Shown: piece after piece, positions 6,949 through 15,168 of the stretch | Position numbering within the stretch: position 1 is the first letter of the stretch | Layout: each line of letters opens with the position of its first letter | NCBI GenBank assembly: GCA_963661945.1 | Contig: CAVLDP010000003.1 | Location: 61,441 to 125,440, forward strand | Source of the DNA: Lachnospiraceae bacterium | GTDB taxonomy: Bacteria; Bacillota; Clostridia; Lachnospirales; Lachnospiraceae | Length of the DNA: 64,000 nucleotides | Direction of reading: 5' to 3' | Translations under genes and position numbers: made by a program | Notes under the pieces: generated by a model | Told to the model about the DNA's origin: nothing | Database searches by the model: none | What the model saw: the letters and a program-made list of their open reading frames with translations, nothing else

Positions 6949-9948
6949 GTGGAGGTGATTCCAGTGGAACGTACAGGATTAGAAGAATTATATGCAGGAT
7001 TTGAAACAGCCTTTATTGATGGGTCGTTGGCATCGAACATAGCTTATCGGCCTACTTTTGTATCGAATGCGCCTGAAGAGGGAAAGAAGGTAATTTCTAC
7101 GATAGAGGATGAACTTCTATCCTGTGACAGCTTTCAGATTAGTGTAGCCTTCATTACTATGGGAGGTATTACACCTCTTCTACAGACTCTGAAGGAACTG
7201 GAAGATAGGAACATTCCAGGCCAGATTCTCACAACCAATTATCTGAACTTTAGTGAGCCAAGAGCTCTGTCTACGCTAAGTCAGCTTAAGAATATCACTT
7301 TGAAAATGTATGATGTGGAGGAATCCGGAGCAGGATTTCACACGAAGGGTTATATCTTTAAGAAGGACGAAATATATCGCATTATCATTGGCAGCTCTAA
7401 TATGACATCTGCTGCACTTACAGAGAATAAAGAGTGGAACACTAGAATTATCTCTACGGAGCAGGGCGAGATGGCACAGAAGATTGTGCGAGAATTCAGC
7501 ACTTTTTGGGATTCGGACTATGCTTATTCGTATGAGGACTTTATAGAGTCTTATAGCAGAACCTATGAGATTGTCAGGAAACAACGCCAGATTGCCAAAC
7601 AGGATGAAGTTGTTTCTTTAGAGAAATATAAGCTAAAACCTAATTCCATGCAGGTTGGATTTATCGAGAATTTACGTAAGATTGTAGATGCAGGAGAGAA
7701 TAGAGCTCTGCTTATTTCTGCGACAGGAACAGGTAAGACTTATGCTTCTGCATTTGCAATGAGGGAGCTTTCTTTTCAGAGAGTCCTCTTCTTGGTGCAT
7801 AGAGGTCAACTTGCCAGACAGACGATGAAGTCTTATGAGAAGGTTTTTGGACATTCTGTTTCTATGGGACTTTTGGGCGCTGGACATAGAGACTTTGATG
7901 CAGATTATGTATTTGCTACAGTTCAGACCTTGAGCAGGGATGAGCATCTTATGGCTTATAGAGGGGATGAATTTGACTGTATTATTCTTGATGAAGCCCA
8001 CCATGTTCCTGCAGACACCTATCAGAAGATTATGAATCATTTTAGGCCTAAGCTCTGGCTTGGAATGACCGCAACTCCTGACAAAAGAGATGACAATATA
8101 GAAGGGCGTAATGTATATGAGATTTTTCATCATCAGATAGCCTATGAGATTCGTTTGCAGCAGGCTATGGATGAGAATCTTCTGTGTCCATTTCATTATT
8201 TCGGCATTACGGATCTGTCTGTTATCGGAGATGAAGCGGATTCGAGCAGAGATTTTGGTAGACTGACATCTGATGAGCGACTTAAGCATATTATCGATCA
8301 AGCGACTTATTATGGATATAGTGGAGATAAGGTCAAGGGGTTAATTTTCTGCAGTGGTATTCGTGAATCAGAGGAGCTTTCCGCTAAGCTTAATCAGACG
8401 ATAAATCCTGAGACAGGAAGATATTTCCGCACGATTTCTCTAAATGGTAGCGCATCAGAGGAAGAGAGACAGGTTGCCTTTGAACGTCTTGCTATGGATG
8501 AGGATGATGCTAAGGATGGGAAAACTCCGCTGGATTACATCCTGTCCTATGAGATTCTAAATGAAGGCGTCGATATTGTGGAAGTGAATCAGGTCATCAT
8601 GCTTCGTCCGACGGAATCTCCTATTGTCTTCATTCAACAGCTTGGAAGAGGTCTTCGTAAGTCCTATAACAAGGAATATGTTGTGATTTTGGATTTCATT
8701 GGCAATTATCAGAATAACTTTATGATACCGATTGCCCTTTCTGGAGACCGCAGCTACAACAAGGATAATATTCGCCGATACGTTATGGAGGGCGGTCGCG
8801 TGATTCCTGGAGCATCTACGGTGCATTTTGATGCAATCAGTAGAGAGAAGATTTATCAATCTATTGATCGCATGTCTACAACGAAGGCCATGCTTAAGGA
8901 CAAATATTTTGCTCTGAAGGATCGCCTTGGACGAATTCCGACTATCCTTGATTTCTATGAGAATGGAGAGATTGATCCCATGCTCTTTGTCGAGTATTCG
9001 AGGTCCTATGATCAGTTTATTCGACTTGTGGACGTAGAATATAAGATATCATTTTCAGAAGATGAAGAGAAGATACTTGAGTATGTGTCGAATTTCATTA
9101 TGAATGGTAAGCGAATCCACGAGCTTCTAATGCTTAAGCTTCTTCTGAAGGATGGAGAATTCACAGAGGCTTCCTTCCGCGATGAGATGAAGGCCCTACA
9201 CGAGATTTATCGAGAAGAAGACTATTCTTCTGCCTATCATGTTTTAACAGGCGAGTTTCTTAATGCACCTACGGACAAGAACCGATATAGTGATATAGAA
9301 CTAATCTCAACCGTTGGTGCGATGGACCAGAACTACAAGAGAGCGCTCTCTTTCTATGAGAAGCTTAAGAATCAGAATTTTGAGAGAGAATTAGAACGAT
9401 TAGTAGAGTATGGTTTGCTTCGATATAAGGACATTTATCACAACCACGATGAGAATAATCTGGTTCTCTATCAGAAATATTCCAGGAAGGACGTTTGCCG
9501 AATCCTAAACTGGGAGAAGGATAATAGTTCTACAATGTATGGTTATCGAATTAAGTATGGGACTTGTCCGATTTTCGTTACCTATGAGAAGGCAGATGAC
9601 ATTGCAAGCAGTACGAGATATCTGGATGAATTCGAGAAGTTGTCCGAGGAACCTGAGATTCGCAGCAATCGAATCTTCAGTTGGATGACGAGAAGCAAGG
9701 TGACGCTCGATAGTGTGGAAGCGAAGAAATTAATTCACGCCAGGGAAGAAGGACTGAAGGTTCTTCTCTTCCTCAAGAAGAGCGATGGTGAGGGAAGCGA
9801 TTTCTATTATATGGGGCAGGTAGATCCTCTTTCCTGGGAAGAAACGACAATCCTCGATGATAATAAACGCGAGCTACCTATCGTCAATTTTAAGCTCTGC
9901 CTTAGACAGGAAGCCAGAGATGATATCTTTGATTATTTTACAGCTTAG
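6949..9948 (+). CDS. SauUSI-like PLD-nuclease / SF2 helicase / DUF3427 protein (type IV modification-dependent restriction architecture)
   Basis: Single HKD-type motif HTKGYIFKKD..GSSN (His codon 7339-7341). Walker A ATGTGKT (7726-7740). DEAH (7990-8001). TAT motif GMTATP. Motif VI QQLGRGLR. C-terminal YSRKDVCRILNWEK..YGYRIKYGTCPIFVTYEK block is typical of DUF3427. Start is either GTG 6949 or, more likely, GTG 6964, which lies 6 nt after GGAGGTG (6951-6957). Confidence 0.85.
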   Translation: MEVIPVERTGLEELYAGFETAFIDGSLASNIAYRPTFVSNAPEEGKKVISTIEDELLSCDSFQISVAFITMGGITPLLQTLKELEDRNIPGQILTTNYLNFSEPRALSTLSQLKNITLKMYDVEESGAGFHTKGYIFKKDEIYRIIIGSSNMTSAALTENKEWNTRIISTEQGEMAQKIVREFSTFWDSDYAYSYEDFIESYSRTYEIVRKQRQIAKQDEVVSLEKYKLKPNSMQVGFIENLRKIVDAGENRALLISATGTGKTYASAFAMRELSFQRVLFLVHRGQLARQTMKSYEKVFGHSVSMGLLGAGHRDFDADYVFATVQTLSRDEHLMAYRGDEFDCIILDEAHHVPADTYQKIMNHFRPKLWLGMTATPDKRDDNIEGRNVYEIFHHQIAYEIRLQQAMDENLLCPFHYFGITDLSVIGDEADSSRDFGRLTSDERLKHIIDQATYYGYSGDKVKGLIFCSGIRESEELSAKLNQTINPETGRYFRTISLNGSASEEERQVAFERLAMDEDDAKDGKTPLDYILSYEILNEGVDIVEVNQVIMLRPTESPIVFIQQLGRGLRKSYNKEYVVILDFIGNYQNNFMIPIALSGDRSYNKDNIRRYVMEGGRVIPGASTVHFDAISREKIYQSIDRMSTTKAMLKDKYFALKDRLGRIPTILDFYENGEIDPMLFVEYSRSYDQFIRLVDVEYKISFSEDEEKILEYVSNFIMNGKRIHELLMLKLLLKDGEFTEASFRDEMKALHEIYREEDYSSAYHVLTGEFLNAPTDKNRYSDIELISTVGAMDQNYKRALSFYEKLKNQNFERELERLVEYGLLRYKDIYHNHDENNLVLYQKYSRKDVCRILNWEKDNSSTMYGYRIKYGTCPIFVTYEKADDIASSTRYLDEFEKLSEEPEIRSNRIFSWMTRSKVTLDSVEAKKLIHAREEGLKVLLFLKKSDGEGSDFYYMGQVDPLSWEETTILDDNKRELPIVNFKLCLRQEARDDIFDYFTA

Positions 9949-9956
9949 GAGGGAAT

Positions 9957-10364
9957 ATGAAGACAGTACATGTTGTAGCTGCAATTATTCATACATGTGA
10001 CGAGGATGGTAATCCTATTATCTTTGCGACCGAGAGAGGTTATGGTGACTTCAAGGGAGGCTGGGAATTCCCAGGAGGTAAAATAGAAATCGGCGAGACC
10101 AGCGAGGAAGCCTTGGCTCGTGAAATTATGGAAGAATTAGATACAAAGATTGCTGTTGGTGAGCATATTTGTGACATTGAATATGACTACCCTACATTTC
10201 ATCTTTCCATGGAGTGCTTTCTCTGCGAGGTTATTGCAGGAGACCTTGTTCTGAAGGAACATGAGGCAGCGAGATGGCTAAAGCTTGATGAACTTGATAC
10301 GGTTGACTGGCTTCCCGCAGACCAAGACGTAGTAGCCCTATTAAAGGCAGAAGGAATAGAGTAG
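9957..10364 (+). CDS. Nudix hydrolase, MutT/NudG-like (d)NTP pyrophosphohydrolase
   Basis: Nudix box GGWEFPGGKIEIGETSEEALAREIMEELD. 135 aa. AGGAGGG SD. The start is 8 nt after the preceding stop. Confidence 0.9.
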   Translation: MKTVHVVAAIIHTCDEDGNPIIFATERGYGDFKGGWEFPGGKIEIGETSEEALAREIMEELDTKIAVGEHICDIEYDYPTFHLSMECFLCEVIAGDLVLKEHEAARWLKLDELDTVDWLPADQDVVALLKAEGIE

Positions 10365-10381
10365 ATAGAAGAGGCAGAGGG

Positions 10382-12466
10382 ATGAATATGGGGGATGGAA
10401 TTGTTATTCCACATCTTGGAATTCTCGTTACGACATTTTGTAATTTGAACTGTAGGAATTGTGCAGATTTAATTCCTAAGCGAGAGAATTATATTTATGA
10501 ATTTGAGGATATTGTTTCAGATTTGAGTCGTCTGCTTGATAATGTCTCTTCTATTGAGGAAGTGCTGATTATCGGTGGCGAGACACTTATGTATCCTAGG
10601 CTTGAGGAGATTATCGATTTCTGCGGAAGCTGTGACAAGATTCATAAGCTGATCATCACGTCAAATGGTACAATACAGCCTTCGGACGATTTGATGGAAT
10701 GCATAGAGAGAAATCAGGTATGCATGCGTATTAGTGGTTATCCAGAGCATGTGGCACCGAATCGAGTTGATATCCTTGAATCATTTGCAGCTCACGGTAT
10801 TTCGACAGAGGACCTTCGGAACATGACCTGGGCTGATATGGGGGACCGTAAGAAGCGTAATCATACAGAAGCAGAATTACAGCAGATTTTCATGACCTGT
10901 GCTATGGCAAATTGTGTGACGCTGCAGAAGGATGGCCGTATTTTCTACTGCTCGAGATCTATGAGTGCCTACGAGACGGATCTCTATCCAGATATACCGG
11001 CGGAGGAATATATCGATGTCAGGCATGAGGAAGATCTTGCTGCAAGTATTGATAGATTCTTTCATATTCCATATCTTACAACCTGCGATTACTGTGATGG
11101 CATCTCCTGTGCTACAACCAAATATTATCCTGCTGCGACGCAGATTCTGGACAAGGGCATTTTCTTAGAACTGTTGGGACTGGTCTCTAGCCTTCATAGT
11201 GATAGGGAACATGCTGATGTAATAGTGGTGGCAATCAGTCGTATCCTAATTGATTATGCTACAGATTTATATGATTTGGATGATTATCTGATATGCATGC
11301 GTGCAATAGAAGAATTTTTGACTACGCATGGTGATGAGGCTTTTGATAGATTGCTTGAGTCGATGATTCGCCTTACGAATAGCATTACGGATGACTATAA
11401 TTTTGTTGCAAGTGATGATGTAGCATTTACGCGAGAGAACCAAAATCATTCAAGCAGAAATCGGATAACGGTTGGAAGAGTCGGAGGAAGAGGAACAGAA
11501 GAGCTGCTCTTTGATGATGCAGAGATTCTAGAGGAGTTCCACAAGAGATATTCGCTGGATTATGCTGAGTATAATAGGGTTTTCCTCGAGACAGAATTTG
11601 AGCGATTAGAATCTGAAGATATTACGTGTGCTGTTTGTGGACTTTCTTATACGCAATCTGGAATAGTACAGGAATTGATGCCGGTAGGGACAGTGAACCT
11701 GTCGGTGACAGGGCAGGATATTCCTTATTCCCTTCTGATGGCAAGGAAGGCAATTGAGATTCGCCCAGAGATTAGAACACTGATTATTCCGATGACCTAT
11801 TATCATGGCTTCTATGATATTTCATCGGATGATGCATTTATTCATAAGGACATCGTCCGGAGGGTGAACATACCGCTACTTGGTGAAGCGAGAAATTACG
11901 ATTCCTCGGTGGAATATGTGATTGCAGCTAGCGAAGAGCCTACGCTTGAGATTTATGATAGAATCTTTGATTTTCATGAAGTGCAAAAGGAAGTAGAGGC
12001 AGGAATTAGAGAATATCTAGTAGATAAGGATTTCTTCAATGAGATATACCCACAGTCACCATTTGGCGGACTGAAATTCGACTACAAGACCTTGAGCGAG
12101 GAAGAGCGTTTTCAGTCAGCAAAGATTACGGCAGAGTTAAATGAGCGCGTTGTAACGAGTAGCGGTCAGGAAGAGGTCGCGAAATACCTAAGAGAACTTC
12201 TTCCAGAATTAACGAAGGATGGAAGACGCGTGATCTTCTTCCTCCCTCCGATGACGAAATATCTATATGCAGCCTATAGTGATGAGCTGAAGAATAATTT
12301 CAGAGATCAGACGCTTCCTCTTCTTAGTGAATTTGATAATGTATTCTTCTATGATTTCGCGCAGCATGAGATTTTTATGGAAAATGATTTCAATGATTAT
12401 GAACATTTGAATTATAATGGTGGAGTGAAGCTGACGAAGCTTCTTGCAGAACTTATCGAGAGATGA
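10382..12466 (+). CDS. Radical SAM enzyme with SPASM/twitch-like Cys cluster fused to a ~430-aa C-terminal region ending in a DltD/SGNH-like domain
   Basis: CNLNCRNC (CX3CX2C, 10439-10462) and GGETLMYP. Auxiliary Cys pattern C173/C178/C190 (C..G-x4-C) and CDYCDGISC (C235/C238/C243). C-terminal VCGLSY (candidate GxS nucleophile, S422) and DYEHLNYNG (D-x-x-H-L...G as in DltD; Asp codon 12395-12397). ATG 10388 has better SD spacing than ATG 10382. Confidence 0.75.
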   Translation: MNMGDGIVIPHLGILVTTFCNLNCRNCADLIPKRENYIYEFEDIVSDLSRLLDNVSSIEEVLIIGGETLMYPRLEEIIDFCGSCDKIHKLIITSNGTIQPSDDLMECIERNQVCMRISGYPEHVAPNRVDILESFAAHGISTEDLRNMTWADMGDRKKRNHTEAELQQIFMTCAMANCVTLQKDGRIFYCSRSMSAYETDLYPDIPAEEYIDVRHEEDLAASIDRFFHIPYLTTCDYCDGISCATTKYYPAATQILDKGIFLELLGLVSSLHSDREHADVIVVAISRILIDYATDLYDLDDYLICMRAIEEFLTTHGDEAFDRLLESMIRLTNSITDDYNFVASDDVAFTRENQNHSSRNRITVGRVGGRGTEELLFDDAEILEEFHKRYSLDYAEYNRVFLETEFERLESEDITCAVCGLSYTQSGIVQELMPVGTVNLSVTGQDIPYSLLMARKAIEIRPEIRTLIIPMTYYHGFYDISSDDAFIHKDIVRRVNIPLLGEARNYDSSVEYVIAASEEPTLEIYDRIFDFHEVQKEVEAGIREYLVDKDFFNEIYPQSPFGGLKFDYKTLSEEERFQSAKITAELNERVVTSSGQEEVAKYLRELLPELTKDGRRVIFFLPPMTKYLYAAYSDELKNNFRDQTLPLLSEFDNVFFYDFAQHEIFMENDFNDYEHLNYNGGVKLTKLLAELIER

Positions 12467-12482
12467 TTAGGAGGGATTTGTT

Positions 12483-12788
12483 ATGGTAAAGCATATTATT
12501 GTATGGACACTGAAGGATGAATACGATGGAGAGAAAAAGGCTGAGATTCTAAGGGGCATGAAGGAGAATCTGGAAGGCTTAAAGGGACAGGTGCCGGGCC
12601 TTCTCGAGATCAAGGTTGAGACGAAAGGCCTAGCTTCTTCAACGGGGGATTGCATGCTTGATACGACTCTTGAGAGCGAGGAAGCTCTGAAGGCATATGC
12701 GATTCATCCAGCACATGTTGCTGTAGCGGATACTTATGTTCGCCCATATACAGCAATTAGAAGCTGCTTTGACTATGTGATTCATTGA
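12483..12788 (+). CDS. Dabb (stress-responsive alpha/beta barrel) family protein
   Basis: 101 aa. MVKHIIVWTLKDE...LKAYAIHPAHVAV pattern is typical of Dabb domains. AGGAGGG SD. The start is 16 nt after the rSAM stop. Confidence 0.75.
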   Translation: MVKHIIVWTLKDEYDGEKKAEILRGMKENLEGLKGQVPGLLEIKVETKGLASSTGDCMLDTTLESEEALKAYAIHPAHVAVADTYVRPYTAIRSCFDYVIH

Positions 12789-12846
12789 ATTCATATAATA
12801 ATTAGTGTAAGATTATTATATTGTAATGTATTTGGGAGAAGAGATA

Positions 12847-13122
12847 ATGACTAGAATAGAGCCACTAAGCAAGAACACCTCGCTTGAAGAACTTGAGAAT
12901 ATGATGAAGGTTGGACACGTAGTAGTTTTGCCATTCAAGGTTGCACAGAATGTCTACATTATTCAGAACCATAAGCCACAGAAGGTTATGGTTACGGATA
13001 TCAGCATGGTTGGTGTGCAGCTGAATGGTGTATTCTCTACGTGGGAATCCATCGAGGATAATGGTGGAATCTATGTATCAGAGTATGATGCATTGTCCGC
13101 TATGGCTGCTCGTGGTTTATAG
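12847..13122 (+). CDS. Hypothetical 91-aa protein
   Basis: GGGAGAAGAG SD before ATG 12847; the track start at 12826 has no SD. No recognisable motif. Confidence 0.55.
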   Translation: MTRIEPLSKNTSLEELENMMKVGHVVVLPFKVAQNVYIIQNHKPQKVMVTDISMVGVQLNGVFSTWESIEDNGGIYVSEYDALSAMAARGL

Positions 13123-13134
13123 TGATGGACTTGA

Positions 13135-15000
13135 ATGACACCTGAATTATTTTTTGAACGGCTAGTGTCTTGGTGGAAGCGATTTGCTAATTTGCTTGTC
13201 TATAATGGCAAGACACTATTTGCTTTTGAATGTATCTACAAATTCATATCTGCCGCTGTCTTTGTGCCAGTTCTCTACCTTAGCATTGGTTGGGTAGCAC
13301 GACTTGCTGGCTTTTCCTATGTGACAAGTGACAATTTTTGGACATTTATGAGGCACCCGCTTATTATTGCTTATGCGGTAGTGCTTCTTCTTGTCTTGTC
13401 CTTTTATTCCATGATCGACATTAGTGCGGTTATCTATATCATCGATCAGGCTGACCAAAAGGTAAAGGTCGGTCTCTTGCAGCCGATACGCTTTGCATGC
13501 AGCAGGGCAAGGCATGCCTTTGAACCCAAGAATATCATGATAGCTGTTGTTGTCCTTATCATGATTCCATATCTAAACTGTGGAATTCTCTCTAGTGTTG
13601 TTGGTTCATTTTCCCTACCATCCTTTGTAGAACGATATATCGATAGCAAGACATCTCTTAGTATTCTTGCTGTTGCGGCAGCAGTTCTTGTTGCCTTTTA
13701 TCTGCTTCGTTGGTTATTTGGCTTTCATTACTATTCTCTTGAGAAGTGTGATTTTAATGAGGCCAGGAGACGAAGCCTTCGCCTCATGCAGAAATATTGG
13801 CTGTATGACGCAATCGTAATTGGACTGATTCAGATTGTATATTTCCTCATTTCCAAGATTGTGTCGCTAGCTGCATTTCTTGCACTCAAGCTTCTAAATG
13901 GTCTTATGACAATCTACAATTGGCCGGCTACAGTCCTGCTTACAGGAATTCTATTTTTCCTTGTGATTATGGTTATGATTTTCTCCACTGTTGCAGTGCC
14001 AATCAGTTATGCCTGTATCTCACTGATGTTCTATATTAGTAAGGAGTCTCTTGGAGAAGAAATCGTTCGAACCAAGGCAGAAGATATGGTTGTGACAGAC
14101 CGTATGATTCGAAATGGTAAGCGGGCAGTGTGGATTTCACTCCTTGTTTCCTTTGCGGTTGTAGTCGGTTATATCGCTGGATACGCACGTGGGCAATATG
14201 CCATGCATGTGGAGAGCCTGGGTACAGTTGGTGTTACTGCACATAGAGGCTCCTCTTCTACGTATCCTGAGAATACCATGTCCGCCTTCTATGGTGCCAA
14301 GGCAGAAGATGCGACTTGTATTGAGCTTGATGTGGAGCAAAGCAAGGATGGAGTAATCTTCGTATGTCATGATTCTAACCTGGAGAGAATTACGGGAGAG
14401 GATGTGAATTGCTGGGAGCTCACCTATGAGGAGATTCGAGCTCTGGATGCTGGCAGCTTCTTTAGTACTTTGTATCGGGAAGAGTATATGCCTACGCTTG
14501 AGGAGGTTATTGAATTTGCATCGACGAACAATATTGATCTGAATATCGAACTGAAGCCGACGGGCCACGAGACGAATCTGGAGCAAGGTGTCGTTGATCT
14601 AATTCACAAGCATAATTTCGCGAATCACTGCGTGGTGGCATCCCAGGAGTATGATGTGCTAAGTAGGGTTAAGGCTATCGATAGTAATATTATGACCATC
14701 TATGTGACAACAGTTGCATATGGAGACGTGGCAGCAATGGATGCTGCGGATGGTTACAGCATTGAAGCAACCACAATTACAGCTGGTATTGTGAAGAAGA
14801 TTCATAATGCAGGTAAAGTAGTCTATGCGTGGACGGTGAATGATCAGGACGAGATACAGTCTATGATTGATCTTGGTGTAGATAATATTATTACGGATGA
14901 TGTGCTTACTGCCAGAAAGTGTATCTATGGAGCGGAGGCCTATAACTTAATAAGTAAGTATCTGCATGTGTTTACCAGAGATTCTCTATTTGCCAGATAA
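13135..15000 (+). CDS. Membrane-anchored glycerophosphodiester phosphodiesterase (GDPD with N-terminal multi-TM domain)
   Basis: About 340 aa of TM helices are followed by HRGSSSTYPENT, ELDV and CHD motifs of the GDPD fold. The start is 12 nt after the preceding stop. Confidence 0.85.
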   Translation: MTPELFFERLVSWWKRFANLLVYNGKTLFAFECIYKFISAAVFVPVLYLSIGWVARLAGFSYVTSDNFWTFMRHPLIIAYAVVLLLVLSFYSMIDISAVIYIIDQADQKVKVGLLQPIRFACSRARHAFEPKNIMIAVVVLIMIPYLNCGILSSVVGSFSLPSFVERYIDSKTSLSILAVAAAVLVAFYLLRWLFGFHYYSLEKCDFNEARRRSLRLMQKYWLYDAIVIGLIQIVYFLISKIVSLAAFLALKLLNGLMTIYNWPATVLLTGILFFLVIMVMIFSTVAVPISYACISLMFYISKESLGEEIVRTKAEDMVVTDRMIRNGKRAVWISLLVSFAVVVGYIAGYARGQYAMHVESLGTVGVTAHRGSSSTYPENTMSAFYGAKAEDATCIELDVEQSKDGVIFVCHDSNLERITGEDVNCWELTYEEIRALDAGSFFSTLYREEYMPTLEEVIEFASTNNIDLNIELKPTGHETNLEQGVVDLIHKHNFANHCVVASQEYDVLSRVKAIDSNIMTIYVTTVAYGDVAAMDAADGYSIEATTITAGIVKKIHNAGKVVYAWTVNDQDEIQSMIDLGVDNIITDDVLTARKCIYGAEAYNLISKYLHVFTRDSLFAR

Positions 15001-15007
15001 AGAAAAA

Positions 15008-15031
15008 AGCATCAAGCGTTTGCTTGATGCT
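15008..15031. terminator. Hairpin AGCATCAAGC-GTTT-GCTTGATGCT; strong terminator for the minus-strand tRNA, weaker for the plus-strand GDPD gene
   Basis: 10-bp perfect stem. The A6 run at 15003-15008 gives a U-run on the minus strand. Only TT follows on the plus strand. Confidence 0.7.
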
Positions 15032-15036
15032 TAAAA

Positions 15037-15119
15037 TGCGGGCAACAGGACTTGAACCTGCACGAGGGTTACTCACTAGAACCTAAATCTAGCGCGTCTG
15101 CCAATTCCGCCATGCCCGC
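15037..15119 (-). tRNA. tRNA-Leu (anticodon UAG), class II with long variable arm, CCA not encoded
   Basis: Reverse complement folds as a cloverleaf. Acceptor GCGGGCA/TGCCCGC. Anticodon stem CTAGA/TCTAG with loop TTTAGGT. T-arm GCAGG-TTCAAGT-CCTGT. 83 nt. Confidence 0.92.
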
Positions 15120-15139
15120 ATGTCGTACCGACAAGGGAT

Positions 15140-15168
15140 ATTCTATCTGATTTTCTACTTGGAAGCAA
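15140..15168 (-). promoter_or_regulatory. Promoter of tRNA-Leu: TTGCTT-17 nt-TAGAAT on the minus strand
   Basis: AAGCAA at 15163-15168 and ATTCTA at 15140-15145 on the plus strand. The -10 ends 20 nt upstream of the mature tRNA 5' end. Confidence 0.55.

Follow-up and report, generated by a model that had tools for sequence, protein, structure and literature searches.

The stretch of DNA analysed here (the window; 64,000 nucleotides of contig CAVLDP010000003.1 from a Lachnospiraceae bacterium) carries a string of six co-directional genes on its plus strand. They encode a SauUSI-type modification-dependent nuclease, a Nudix hydrolase, a 694 amino acid (aa) fusion of a radical S-adenosylmethionine (radical-SAM) domain with a DltD-like domain, a Dabb protein, a 91-aa protein and a membrane-anchored glycerophosphodiester phosphodiesterase (GDPD). 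An earlier interpretation made from the DNA alone (the sequence-only reading) had offered two explanations, a composite, undescribed defence module or a defence pair fused to an envelope-remodelling set. It had named a lack of co-occurrence in other genomes as speaking against such a connection, and this lack was found for every combination except the nuclease with the Nudix hydrolase. We are fairly confident that the string is a mosaic in which four unrelated units adjoin one another and are possibly co-transcribed; its defence pair is a known one, and the rest is unrelated to that pair.

Junctions and signals of the six-gene string

The coordinates of the six genes (Table 1) and the gaps between them of 8, 17 (or 23), 16, 58 (or 37) and 12 nucleotides (nt) agree with those given previously. 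The open reading frame (ORF) of the nuclease opens with a GTG at 6949, yet the Shine-Dalgarno (SD) sequence GGAGG sits before the GTG at 6964, and gene callers return a protein of 994 aa. The Nudix gene follows so closely that its SD overlaps the stop codon of the nuclease gene. An SD of its own had been claimed for every gene; a clear one is present upstream of five of the six, but that of the GDPD gene is weak (GATGGA).

A consensus scan of positions 6364-15000 revealed no convincing terminator on the plus strand, as had been stated; the only candidates listed lie within coding sequence (for instance at 13677-13695). A strong plus-strand terminator is located upstream of the string at 6318-6363. 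The hairpin downstream of the GDPD gene, previously placed at 15008-15031 and taken as the terminator of the string, has its T-run on the minus strand, while the plus-strand sequence 3′ of it reads AAAATG. It is thus the terminator of the tRNA-Leu gene. This tRNA gene had been described as solitary, and it is indeed the only tRNA-Leu within the window, but its strand has to be corrected to minus.

Since no terminator separates the six genes, they may form one read-through transcript, which would be an accident of packing rather than a functional system. The 58-nt spacer has promoter-like matches at 12790-12819 and 12821-12848, with a TATAAT at about 12795. These are consensus matches only, and the hexamers would fit a possible separate unit for the genes of the 91-aa protein and GDPD.

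Table 1. Features of the six-gene string and its downstream border.
Feature	Position	Strand	Remarks
SauUSI-family type IV restriction enzyme (modification-dependent)	6964..9948	+	phospholipase D (PLD) nuclease, superfamily 2 (SF2) helicase/ATPase, DUF3427; 994 aa
Nudix hydrolase, PADLOC PDC-S07, predicted 5-substituted (d)CTP pyrophosphohydrolase	9957..10364	+	
694-aa fusion: twitch radical-SAM (SpeY/BtrN-like), helical linker, DltD/SGNH-like C-terminus (predicted)	10382..12466	+	
Dabb (stress-responsive alpha/beta barrel) protein, 101 aa	12483..12788	+	Pfam Dabb E 1e-18
AT-rich 58-nt spacer, possible internal promoter for the 91-aa and GDPD genes	12789..12846	+	consensus match only
91-aa near-orphan, predicted small SH3/Tudor-like barrel	12847..13122 (alternative start 12826)	+	
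Membrane-anchored glycerophosphodiester phosphodiesterase (GPDPase_memb and GDPD)	13135..15000	+	
tRNA-Leu	15036-15120	minus	ARAGORN; Rfam tRNA 55.3 bits; convergent with the GDPD gene
Terminator hairpin of tRNA-Leu	15007-15032	minus	T-run on the minus strand

A SauUSI-type nuclease and its Nudix partner

The product of the first gene is, judged from its sequence, a full-length SauUSI orthologue of the type IV restriction family. Pfam domains PLDc_2 (E 6.8e-10), ResIII (E 1.2e-37), Helicase_C and DUF3427 (E 6.2e-84, spanning profile positions 1-280 of 280) were detected, and the PADLOC type IV model mREase_IV matches the protein over its full length (E 5.5e-211). Residues 13-993 align to residues 12-952 of the SauUSI chain in the Protein Data Bank (PDB) entry 7CLG (E 2.6e-201). 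The two proteins share the three-part architecture of PLD nuclease, SF2 helicase and DUF3427 and are collinear end to end; the identity to the staphylococcal enzyme is about 37%. When the window nuclease is aligned with four homologues from plasmids (alignment A2), the nuclease motifs FHTKGY (HxK) and IGSSN (GSxN) as well as the helicase motifs ATGTGKT, DEAH, MTATP and QQLGRGLR are invariant. SauUSI cleaves DNA containing 5-methylcytosine (5mC) or 5-hydroxymethylcytosine (5hmC) (PMC3141236). By homology, the window nuclease is predicted to be an ATP-dependent enzyme cutting 5mC and 5hmC DNA, with DUF3427 as the predicted recognition domain for the modified cytosine. Neither for SauUSI nor for the window nuclease was a methyltransferase partner seen among the characterised neighbours.

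According to the sequence-only reading the string contains no known partner gene. This overlooks the Nudix gene, which encodes the established companion of SauUSI-type enzymes. For at least 60 SauUSI-like genes a linkage to the gene of a MutT/Nudix pyrophosphohydrolase was described by Xu et al. (2011) (PMC3141236), and the same neighbour is depicted by Bell et al. (2020) (PMC7641849). In S. aureus the Nudix gene linked to sauUSI is SAUSA300_2432, and the same Nudix family adjoins the window nuclease. A 2025 preprint found PDC-S07 co-localised with a type IV restriction-modification enzyme in 23 of 23 S. suis cases (10.1101/2025.08.29.672906). PDC-S07 is the PADLOC family (PDLC04899) whose model matches the window Nudix protein over its full length (E 3.8e-46), and the co-localisation with a type IV enzyme is shared as well. 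PADLOC lists it as a stand-alone single-gene candidate without a mechanism, whereas in the window and in the loci described below it is paired with the nuclease in a two-gene module.

To count adjacency we used the 80 metagenomic loci with SauUSI homologues (37-65% identity) returned by the A2 search, restricted to the 56 flanked on either side by 600 nt or more, and scored a Nudix homologue within 300 nt as adjacent. This applied to 51 of the 56. The Nudix gene is located downstream on the same strand, as in the window, in 34 of these 51 loci, which mainly contain closer relatives of the window nuclease; in 4 it is also downstream but on the other strand, and in 13 it precedes the nuclease gene. 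The arrangement 3′ of the nuclease gene is that of the window and most closer relatives, in contrast to the 5′ position in S. aureus, Lactobacillaceae and Bacteroidota. On plasmids of Hymenobacter, Chondrinema, Lactiplantibacillus and Latilactobacillus, which represent two phyla, the gap between the two genes is -14 to 9 nt. Nuclease and Nudix hydrolase are a conserved defence pair that is already described and not new (PMC3141236, PMC3312211, PMC7641849, PADLOC PDC-S07). The window also differs from the S. aureus SauUSI locus in that no terminator separates the pair from the unrelated genes that follow it.

Several details of these loci are reported as side observations. The gene order follows relatedness (L079-L158), with the Nudix gene downstream in most homologues of at least 45% identity and upstream in more distant ones; in four loci of this series it is downstream and convergent with the nuclease gene. 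The only other recurrent neighbours of the SauUSI homologues, seen at L109, L112, L117, L132 and further loci, are an HNH_4 protein of about 375 aa (11 of 80 loci) and a MazG-like pyrophosphohydrolase (6 of 80). On an L. plantarum plasmid (L076 4589-8224) Nudix, SauUSI and MazG-like genes are consecutive. At two loci (L089 6001-11949 and L104 6001-10536) the nuclease-like matches resume past the Nudix gene, giving two apparent SauUSI-like stretches, either in tandem or as a fragment.

The window Nudix protein has a Pfam NUDIX match and a Nudix box, GGKIEIGETSEEALAREIMEELD, in which the RE and EE residues are kept and the last Gly is an Asp. Its best PDB match is 3GWY (E 2.9e-27, 43% identity); most of the partner Nudix genes, compared in 69 loci, are 45-55% identical to that protein. 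E. coli NudG, which prefers 5-methyl-dCTP, is also among the matches. 3GWY (B. fragilis Q5LBB1) hydrolyses 5-Me-CTP, 5-Me-dCTP and 5-hydroxymethyl-dCTP with kcat/Km values of 4-7e6 M-1 s-1 (about 5e6 for the two dCTP derivatives), and canonical nucleoside triphosphates (NTPs) poorly (PMC5158307). These two 5-methyl-(d)CTP pyrophosphohydrolases, Q5LBB1 and NudG/Orf135, are the closest solved relatives of the window protein; they share the RE..EE residues of the box, whose last Gly is replaced by Asp in the window protein.

Alternatively, the gene might code for a generic housekeeping enzyme of the MutT type that lies beside the nuclease gene by chance. NCBIfam models do give MutT matches, all of them below threshold (TIGR00586, 87 bits versus a cut-off of 97.9). 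This explanation is refuted by the adjacency, which holds for 51 of 56 loci from different phyla whichever of the two genes comes first; the PDC-S07 match and the published linkage (PMC3141236, PMC7641849) argue against it too, and we leave it virtually no probability.

Two observations on relatives tie the Nudix family to 5mC biology. A 329-aa protein of Collinsella aerofaciens (NZ_OY725717.1; L059 7001-7990), annotated as Vsr, the very-short-patch endonuclease that repairs 5mC deamination, begins with a homologue of the window Nudix (45% identity) and is thus a Nudix-Vsr fusion; in Treponema relatives adjoin dcm methyltransferases. We infer that the window protein would share the specificity of 3GWY for 5-methyl-dCTP and 5-hydroxymethyl-dCTP, and that it would hydrolyse both to the monophosphates. 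Modified cytosines, whether set free when foreign or methylated DNA is degraded or synthesised by an infecting phage, would then be kept out of replicating DNA, and the host chromosome would escape its own modification-dependent nuclease. The enzyme could in addition starve phages that build genomes with hydroxymethylcytosine (hmC). That it clears 5-substituted dCTP in this manner, shielding the host from its own nuclease and possibly depriving hmC phages, seems to us slightly more probable than not.

The substrate range of 3GWY coincides with the bases that SauUSI recognises. Together with an adjacency of about 90%, this offers a concrete explanation for a pair that has been noted since 2011 and whose second member had no assigned role. 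In the literature found, this sanitiser mechanism is not stated for the Nudix partner of SauUSI. Three points weigh against it: deletion of the Nudix gene in S. aureus did not give the transformable phenotype of a sauUSI deletion (Monk et al., 2012; PMC3312211), no self-protection phenotype has been reported in the literature, and a substrate specificity taken over at 43% identity is an extrapolation.

A related possibility is that the Nudix protein is an active anti-phage effector, which depletes modified deoxynucleoside triphosphates of the phage such as hydroxymethyl-dCTP and complements the nuclease instead of protecting the host. The activity of 3GWY on 5-hydroxymethyl-dCTP as well as 5-methyl-dCTP (PMC5158307), the listing of the family as a defence candidate by PADLOC and the recurrence of MazG-like NTP pyrophosphohydrolases beside SauUSI homologues are consistent with this role. 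No phage phenotype has been reported, however, and the S. aureus deletion result (PMC3312211) counts against this role as well. We regard this reading as unlikely; the two roles are compatible with each other, and sequence cannot separate them.

The radical-SAM/DltD-like fusion and the genes downstream of it

The third gene encodes the fusion protein, in which Pfam recognises only a Radical_SAM domain (residues 15-123) and nothing at the C-terminus. A look-up of the exact 694-aa sequence returned no record, while an identical cluster is present among the homologue clusters. The family comprises 68 such clusters, nearly all of about 690 aa and from Lachnospiraceae; some members carry precomputed Pfam DltD or DUF1574 matches. 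An AlphaFold (AF2) model made from 17 sequences has a predicted local distance difference test score (pLDDT) of 87.9. In Foldseek its N-terminal 260 residues superpose on SpeY (7WZX; E 4.7e-11, template modelling (TM) score 0.68 on the target, root mean square deviation (rmsd) 3.5) and also match BtrN (4M7T). The C-terminal half resembles DltD (3BMA; E 1.6e-5, TM score 0.36, high rmsd; also 7DXM) and PatB, SGNH acyl-transferases. Invariant in all 17 sequences are C20/C24/C27 (the CX3CX2C motif), C173/C178/C190/C235/C238 and S422/D672/H675, which may be the Ser-Asp-His triad of an SGNH fold. The CX3CX2C motif and the five further Cys residues presumably occupy positions similar to those of the auxiliary-cluster ligands in BtrN.

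The N-terminus is thus predicted to be a twitch radical-SAM domain of the SpeY/BtrN sugar dehydrogenase type, and the whole protein would combine a radical-SAM sugar dehydrogenase-like activity with SGNH/DltD-like acyl transfer. It differs from SpeY, BtrN and DltD in that both domains are part of one protein, with an identity of only 11-21%, and in its context, which is flagellin glycosylation and not an aminoglycoside or teichoic acid pathway. No dlt genes, which would point to a partnership with DltA, DltB and DltC, were found in the listed homologue neighbourhoods; the neighbours in the window are the Nudix and Dabb genes. A paper on such a fusion was not found in our literature search. The twitch radical-SAM and DltD-like fusion of about 690 aa thus appears to represent a family of enzymes from the flagellin-glycan clusters of Lachnospiraceae that has so far not been described.

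This family context was derived from 13 loci with a full-length homologue: six come from genomes, and seven are contigs that carry one or the other of the two nearest homologues (58 and 55% identity). In 12 of them FdtA, DegT and/or Glyco_tranf_2_5 genes are encoded within 10 kb; the thirteenth (L003) has flagellin, Glyco_trans_1_2-type and Glyco_tranf_2_5 genes. A flagellin gene is within reach in six loci (L001, L003, L006, L049, L050 and L052), and formyl- or acetyl-transferases, Glyco_trans_1_2 and NeuB are found near some homologues. As an additional observation, FdtA proteins 76-91% identical to that of L049 are present in 16 of the 20 fusion loci examined (in the family, L001-L006 and L049-L055). 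Elsewhere the fusion would accordingly act in flagellin-glycan (dTDP-3-amino-3,6-dideoxyhexose) clusters. None of the 13 full-length loci contains a nuclease, Nudix, Dabb or GDPD gene, and no nuclease or Nudix gene is present in the 20 fusion-centred loci. Conversely, the whole 64-kb window has no FdtA, DegT, flagellin or glycosyltransferase gene, so the fusion gene is solitary here. We take it for a displaced and apparently intact gene of a carbohydrate-modifying enzyme that would have no part in nucleotide chemistry tied to the nuclease.

Nucleotide-pool chemistry of the viperin kind is not indicated for this domain. Prokaryotic viperins (pVip) share the generic radical-SAM core with the fusion (PADLOC pVip, E 5.5e-6, residues 16-111), which has in addition a Cys-rich extension of the twitch type and the DltD-like domain, and no defence context elsewhere. 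An assignment as viperin was rejected: the NCBIfam viperin model gives 21 bits against a cut-off of 180 with only the core matching, viperin structures score E 4e-4 or worse in Foldseek, below SpeY, DltD and BtrN, and the homologues are located in glycan clusters.

The proposal of a single undescribed defence system made up of all six genes, with the nuclease working alongside Nudix nucleotide-pool and viperin-like radical-SAM chemistry, draws on the weak pVip match, on the tight junctions without a terminator and on the same order in contigs of the same species. It does not agree with the neighbourhoods. Within 6 kb of the 80 SauUSI homologues no relative of the fusion, Dabb, 91-aa protein or GDPD was found, and neighbourhoods centred on each of the latter three contain no nuclease or Nudix gene; recurrence of fusion or 91-aa homologues beside DUF3427 nucleases or Nudix genes, raised earlier as a possibility, was not seen. 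Thus no gene-centred sampling showed co-occurrence outside the species. In addition, the radical-SAM domain is closest to the SpeY/BtrN twitch sugar dehydrogenases and is joined to a DltD-like domain, the fusion family belongs to flagellin-glycan clusters, no PADLOC match was obtained for Dabb, the 91-aa protein or GDPD, and tight packing is the default of this genome. We therefore consider a single six-gene defence system extremely improbable.

The Dabb gene is a common Lachnospiraceae gene with variable neighbours; its closest annotated relatives, from Lachnospira eligens and Agathobacter rectalis (64% identity), lie among unrelated genes. A radical-SAM protein that A. rectalis encodes at a distance of 3 kb from its Dabb gene was considered as a relative of the fusion and dismissed (no tblastn match, E 0.01). 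In that genome (L160 6001-7788) the Dabb homologue is directly followed by a methyl-accepting chemotaxis protein and then a Wadjet system; the chemotaxis protein is 31% identical to one encoded 3′ of the tRNA in the window (12483-17272 compared).

The 91-aa protein has no Pfam, PADLOC, NCBIfam or PHROG match and only three small homologues among 1.84 billion representatives. Its AF2 model (pLDDT 79) found no significant PDB match (best E 0.26), and with moderate model confidence a small SH3/Tudor-like barrel is predicted. GDPD has Pfam matches to GDPD (E 1.6e-43) and to GPDPase_memb (E 2e-26), and 246 homologue clusters at E<=1e-60. It is a widespread gene of the housekeeping type from a large Clostridia family, and its homologues in other genomes have unrelated neighbours. 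Of the downstream genes these two alone keep their adjacency, in a single sister species in which the 91-aa homologue (74% identity) directly precedes the GDPD gene (62%), with FolD and FTCD_C in front of both. That locus lacks nuclease, Nudix, fusion and Dabb genes, and the sequence upstream of the 91-aa gene shows only weak, uninterpretable similarity between the window and the sister species. More distant 91-aa homologues precede either a histidine phosphatase and an acylphosphatase or a DegV-like gene, and these neighbours yield no firm function. The genes downstream of the 91-aa homologues (L066 8001-8276, L072 6001-6270, L070 32-310) all code for phosphoester- or lipid-related enzymes, a hint that it may be a small accessory protein.

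These data bear on the second proposal, in which the defence pair is transcriptionally fused to an envelope-remodelling set (genes three to six) acting on teichoic acid or glycerophosphate polymers. Part of it stands: a real defence pair abuts unrelated genes. The pair is already described, however, and the downstream genes are not a coherent set. The likeness of the C-terminal fusion domain to DltD and PatB O-acyltransferases, the membrane anchor of GDPD, the adjacency of the 91-aa and GDPD genes in the sister species and the lack of a terminator between the genes would fit an envelope function. Against this, fusion homologues are never near GDPD, Dabb or 91-aa genes but near FdtA, DegT, glycosyltransferase and flagellin genes, the neighbours of GDPD homologues are unrelated, 91-aa homologues also precede histidine phosphatase or DegV-like genes, and the sister species has neither the fusion nor Dabb beside its 91-aa/GDPD pair. 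Such a set is improbable.

A probable mosaic of four units

In the mosaic reading, unit 1 (6964-10364), the SauUSI-type nuclease with its Nudix partner, would be the sole defence module. The solitary radical-SAM/DltD-like fusion would form unit 2 (10382-12466), the Dabb gene unit 3, and the 91-aa gene together with the membrane GDPD gene unit 4.

The spacing within the string is what the window would lead one to expect. There, 47 of 54 ORFs are on the plus strand, GC skew is positive across nearly the whole window, and same-strand gaps have a median of 17 nt. As 28 of the 41 such gaps are 60 nt or shorter, five consecutive short gaps are unremarkable (a chance of roughly 0.15 from the gap frequency in the window). 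In a Firmicute genome with such a strong strand bias, genes packed tightly and without terminators are thus not evidence of a system. GC content, GC content at third codon positions and codon usage of the six genes are within the range of the window, with no compositional or codon usage anomaly seen. A search for att-like or tRNA-derived repeats in 5300-15400 gave only chance matches, none of them flanking the six genes, and an Rfam scan for regulatory RNA returned the tRNA only.

Some points count against four independent units. Co-transcription of at least the first four genes, with some regulatory coupling, is plausible from the 8-17 nt junctions, the SD sequences and the lack of a terminator. 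The gene order is identical in all contigs of the same species (L044-L048, L060), which shows that the arrangement is stable, though only within this species. With so few relatives sequenced, the history of the juxtaposition is not reconstructable. If the pair, the fusion and the 91-aa/GDPD genes were co-transcribed, restriction of modified DNA could be co-regulated with remodelling of a phage receptor at the surface (flagellin glycan or glycerophosphate polymer) in a lineage-specific defence unit. We think this very improbable, and the proposed role of the Nudix protein as a 5-methyl/5-hydroxymethyl-dCTP sanitiser that would make the nuclease safe for the host is better supported.

The region between the upstream terminator and the nuclease gene (6364-6948) has no match in Pfam, PHROG or a phage collection (blastn and tblastn). 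It is non-coding or broken sequence, and its earlier description as decayed phage-like debris could not be verified. Upstream of these roughly 590 nt, a 33-aa hydrophobic ORF, MMEVLGTAGISVVVAGGVAATMEGVKYMIKRMF, at 6180-6281 is equipped with a strong SD, and the intrinsic terminator at 6318-6363 (20-bp stem) comes after it. The ORF is located just 3′ of a response regulator gene. Further upstream, 480-5327 encodes a 1615-aa hybrid sensor kinase with Reg_prop beta-propeller repeats, Y_Y_Y, HisKA, HATPase, receiver and Hpt domains, and 1 nt after it begins the gene of a 256-aa receiver domain protein.

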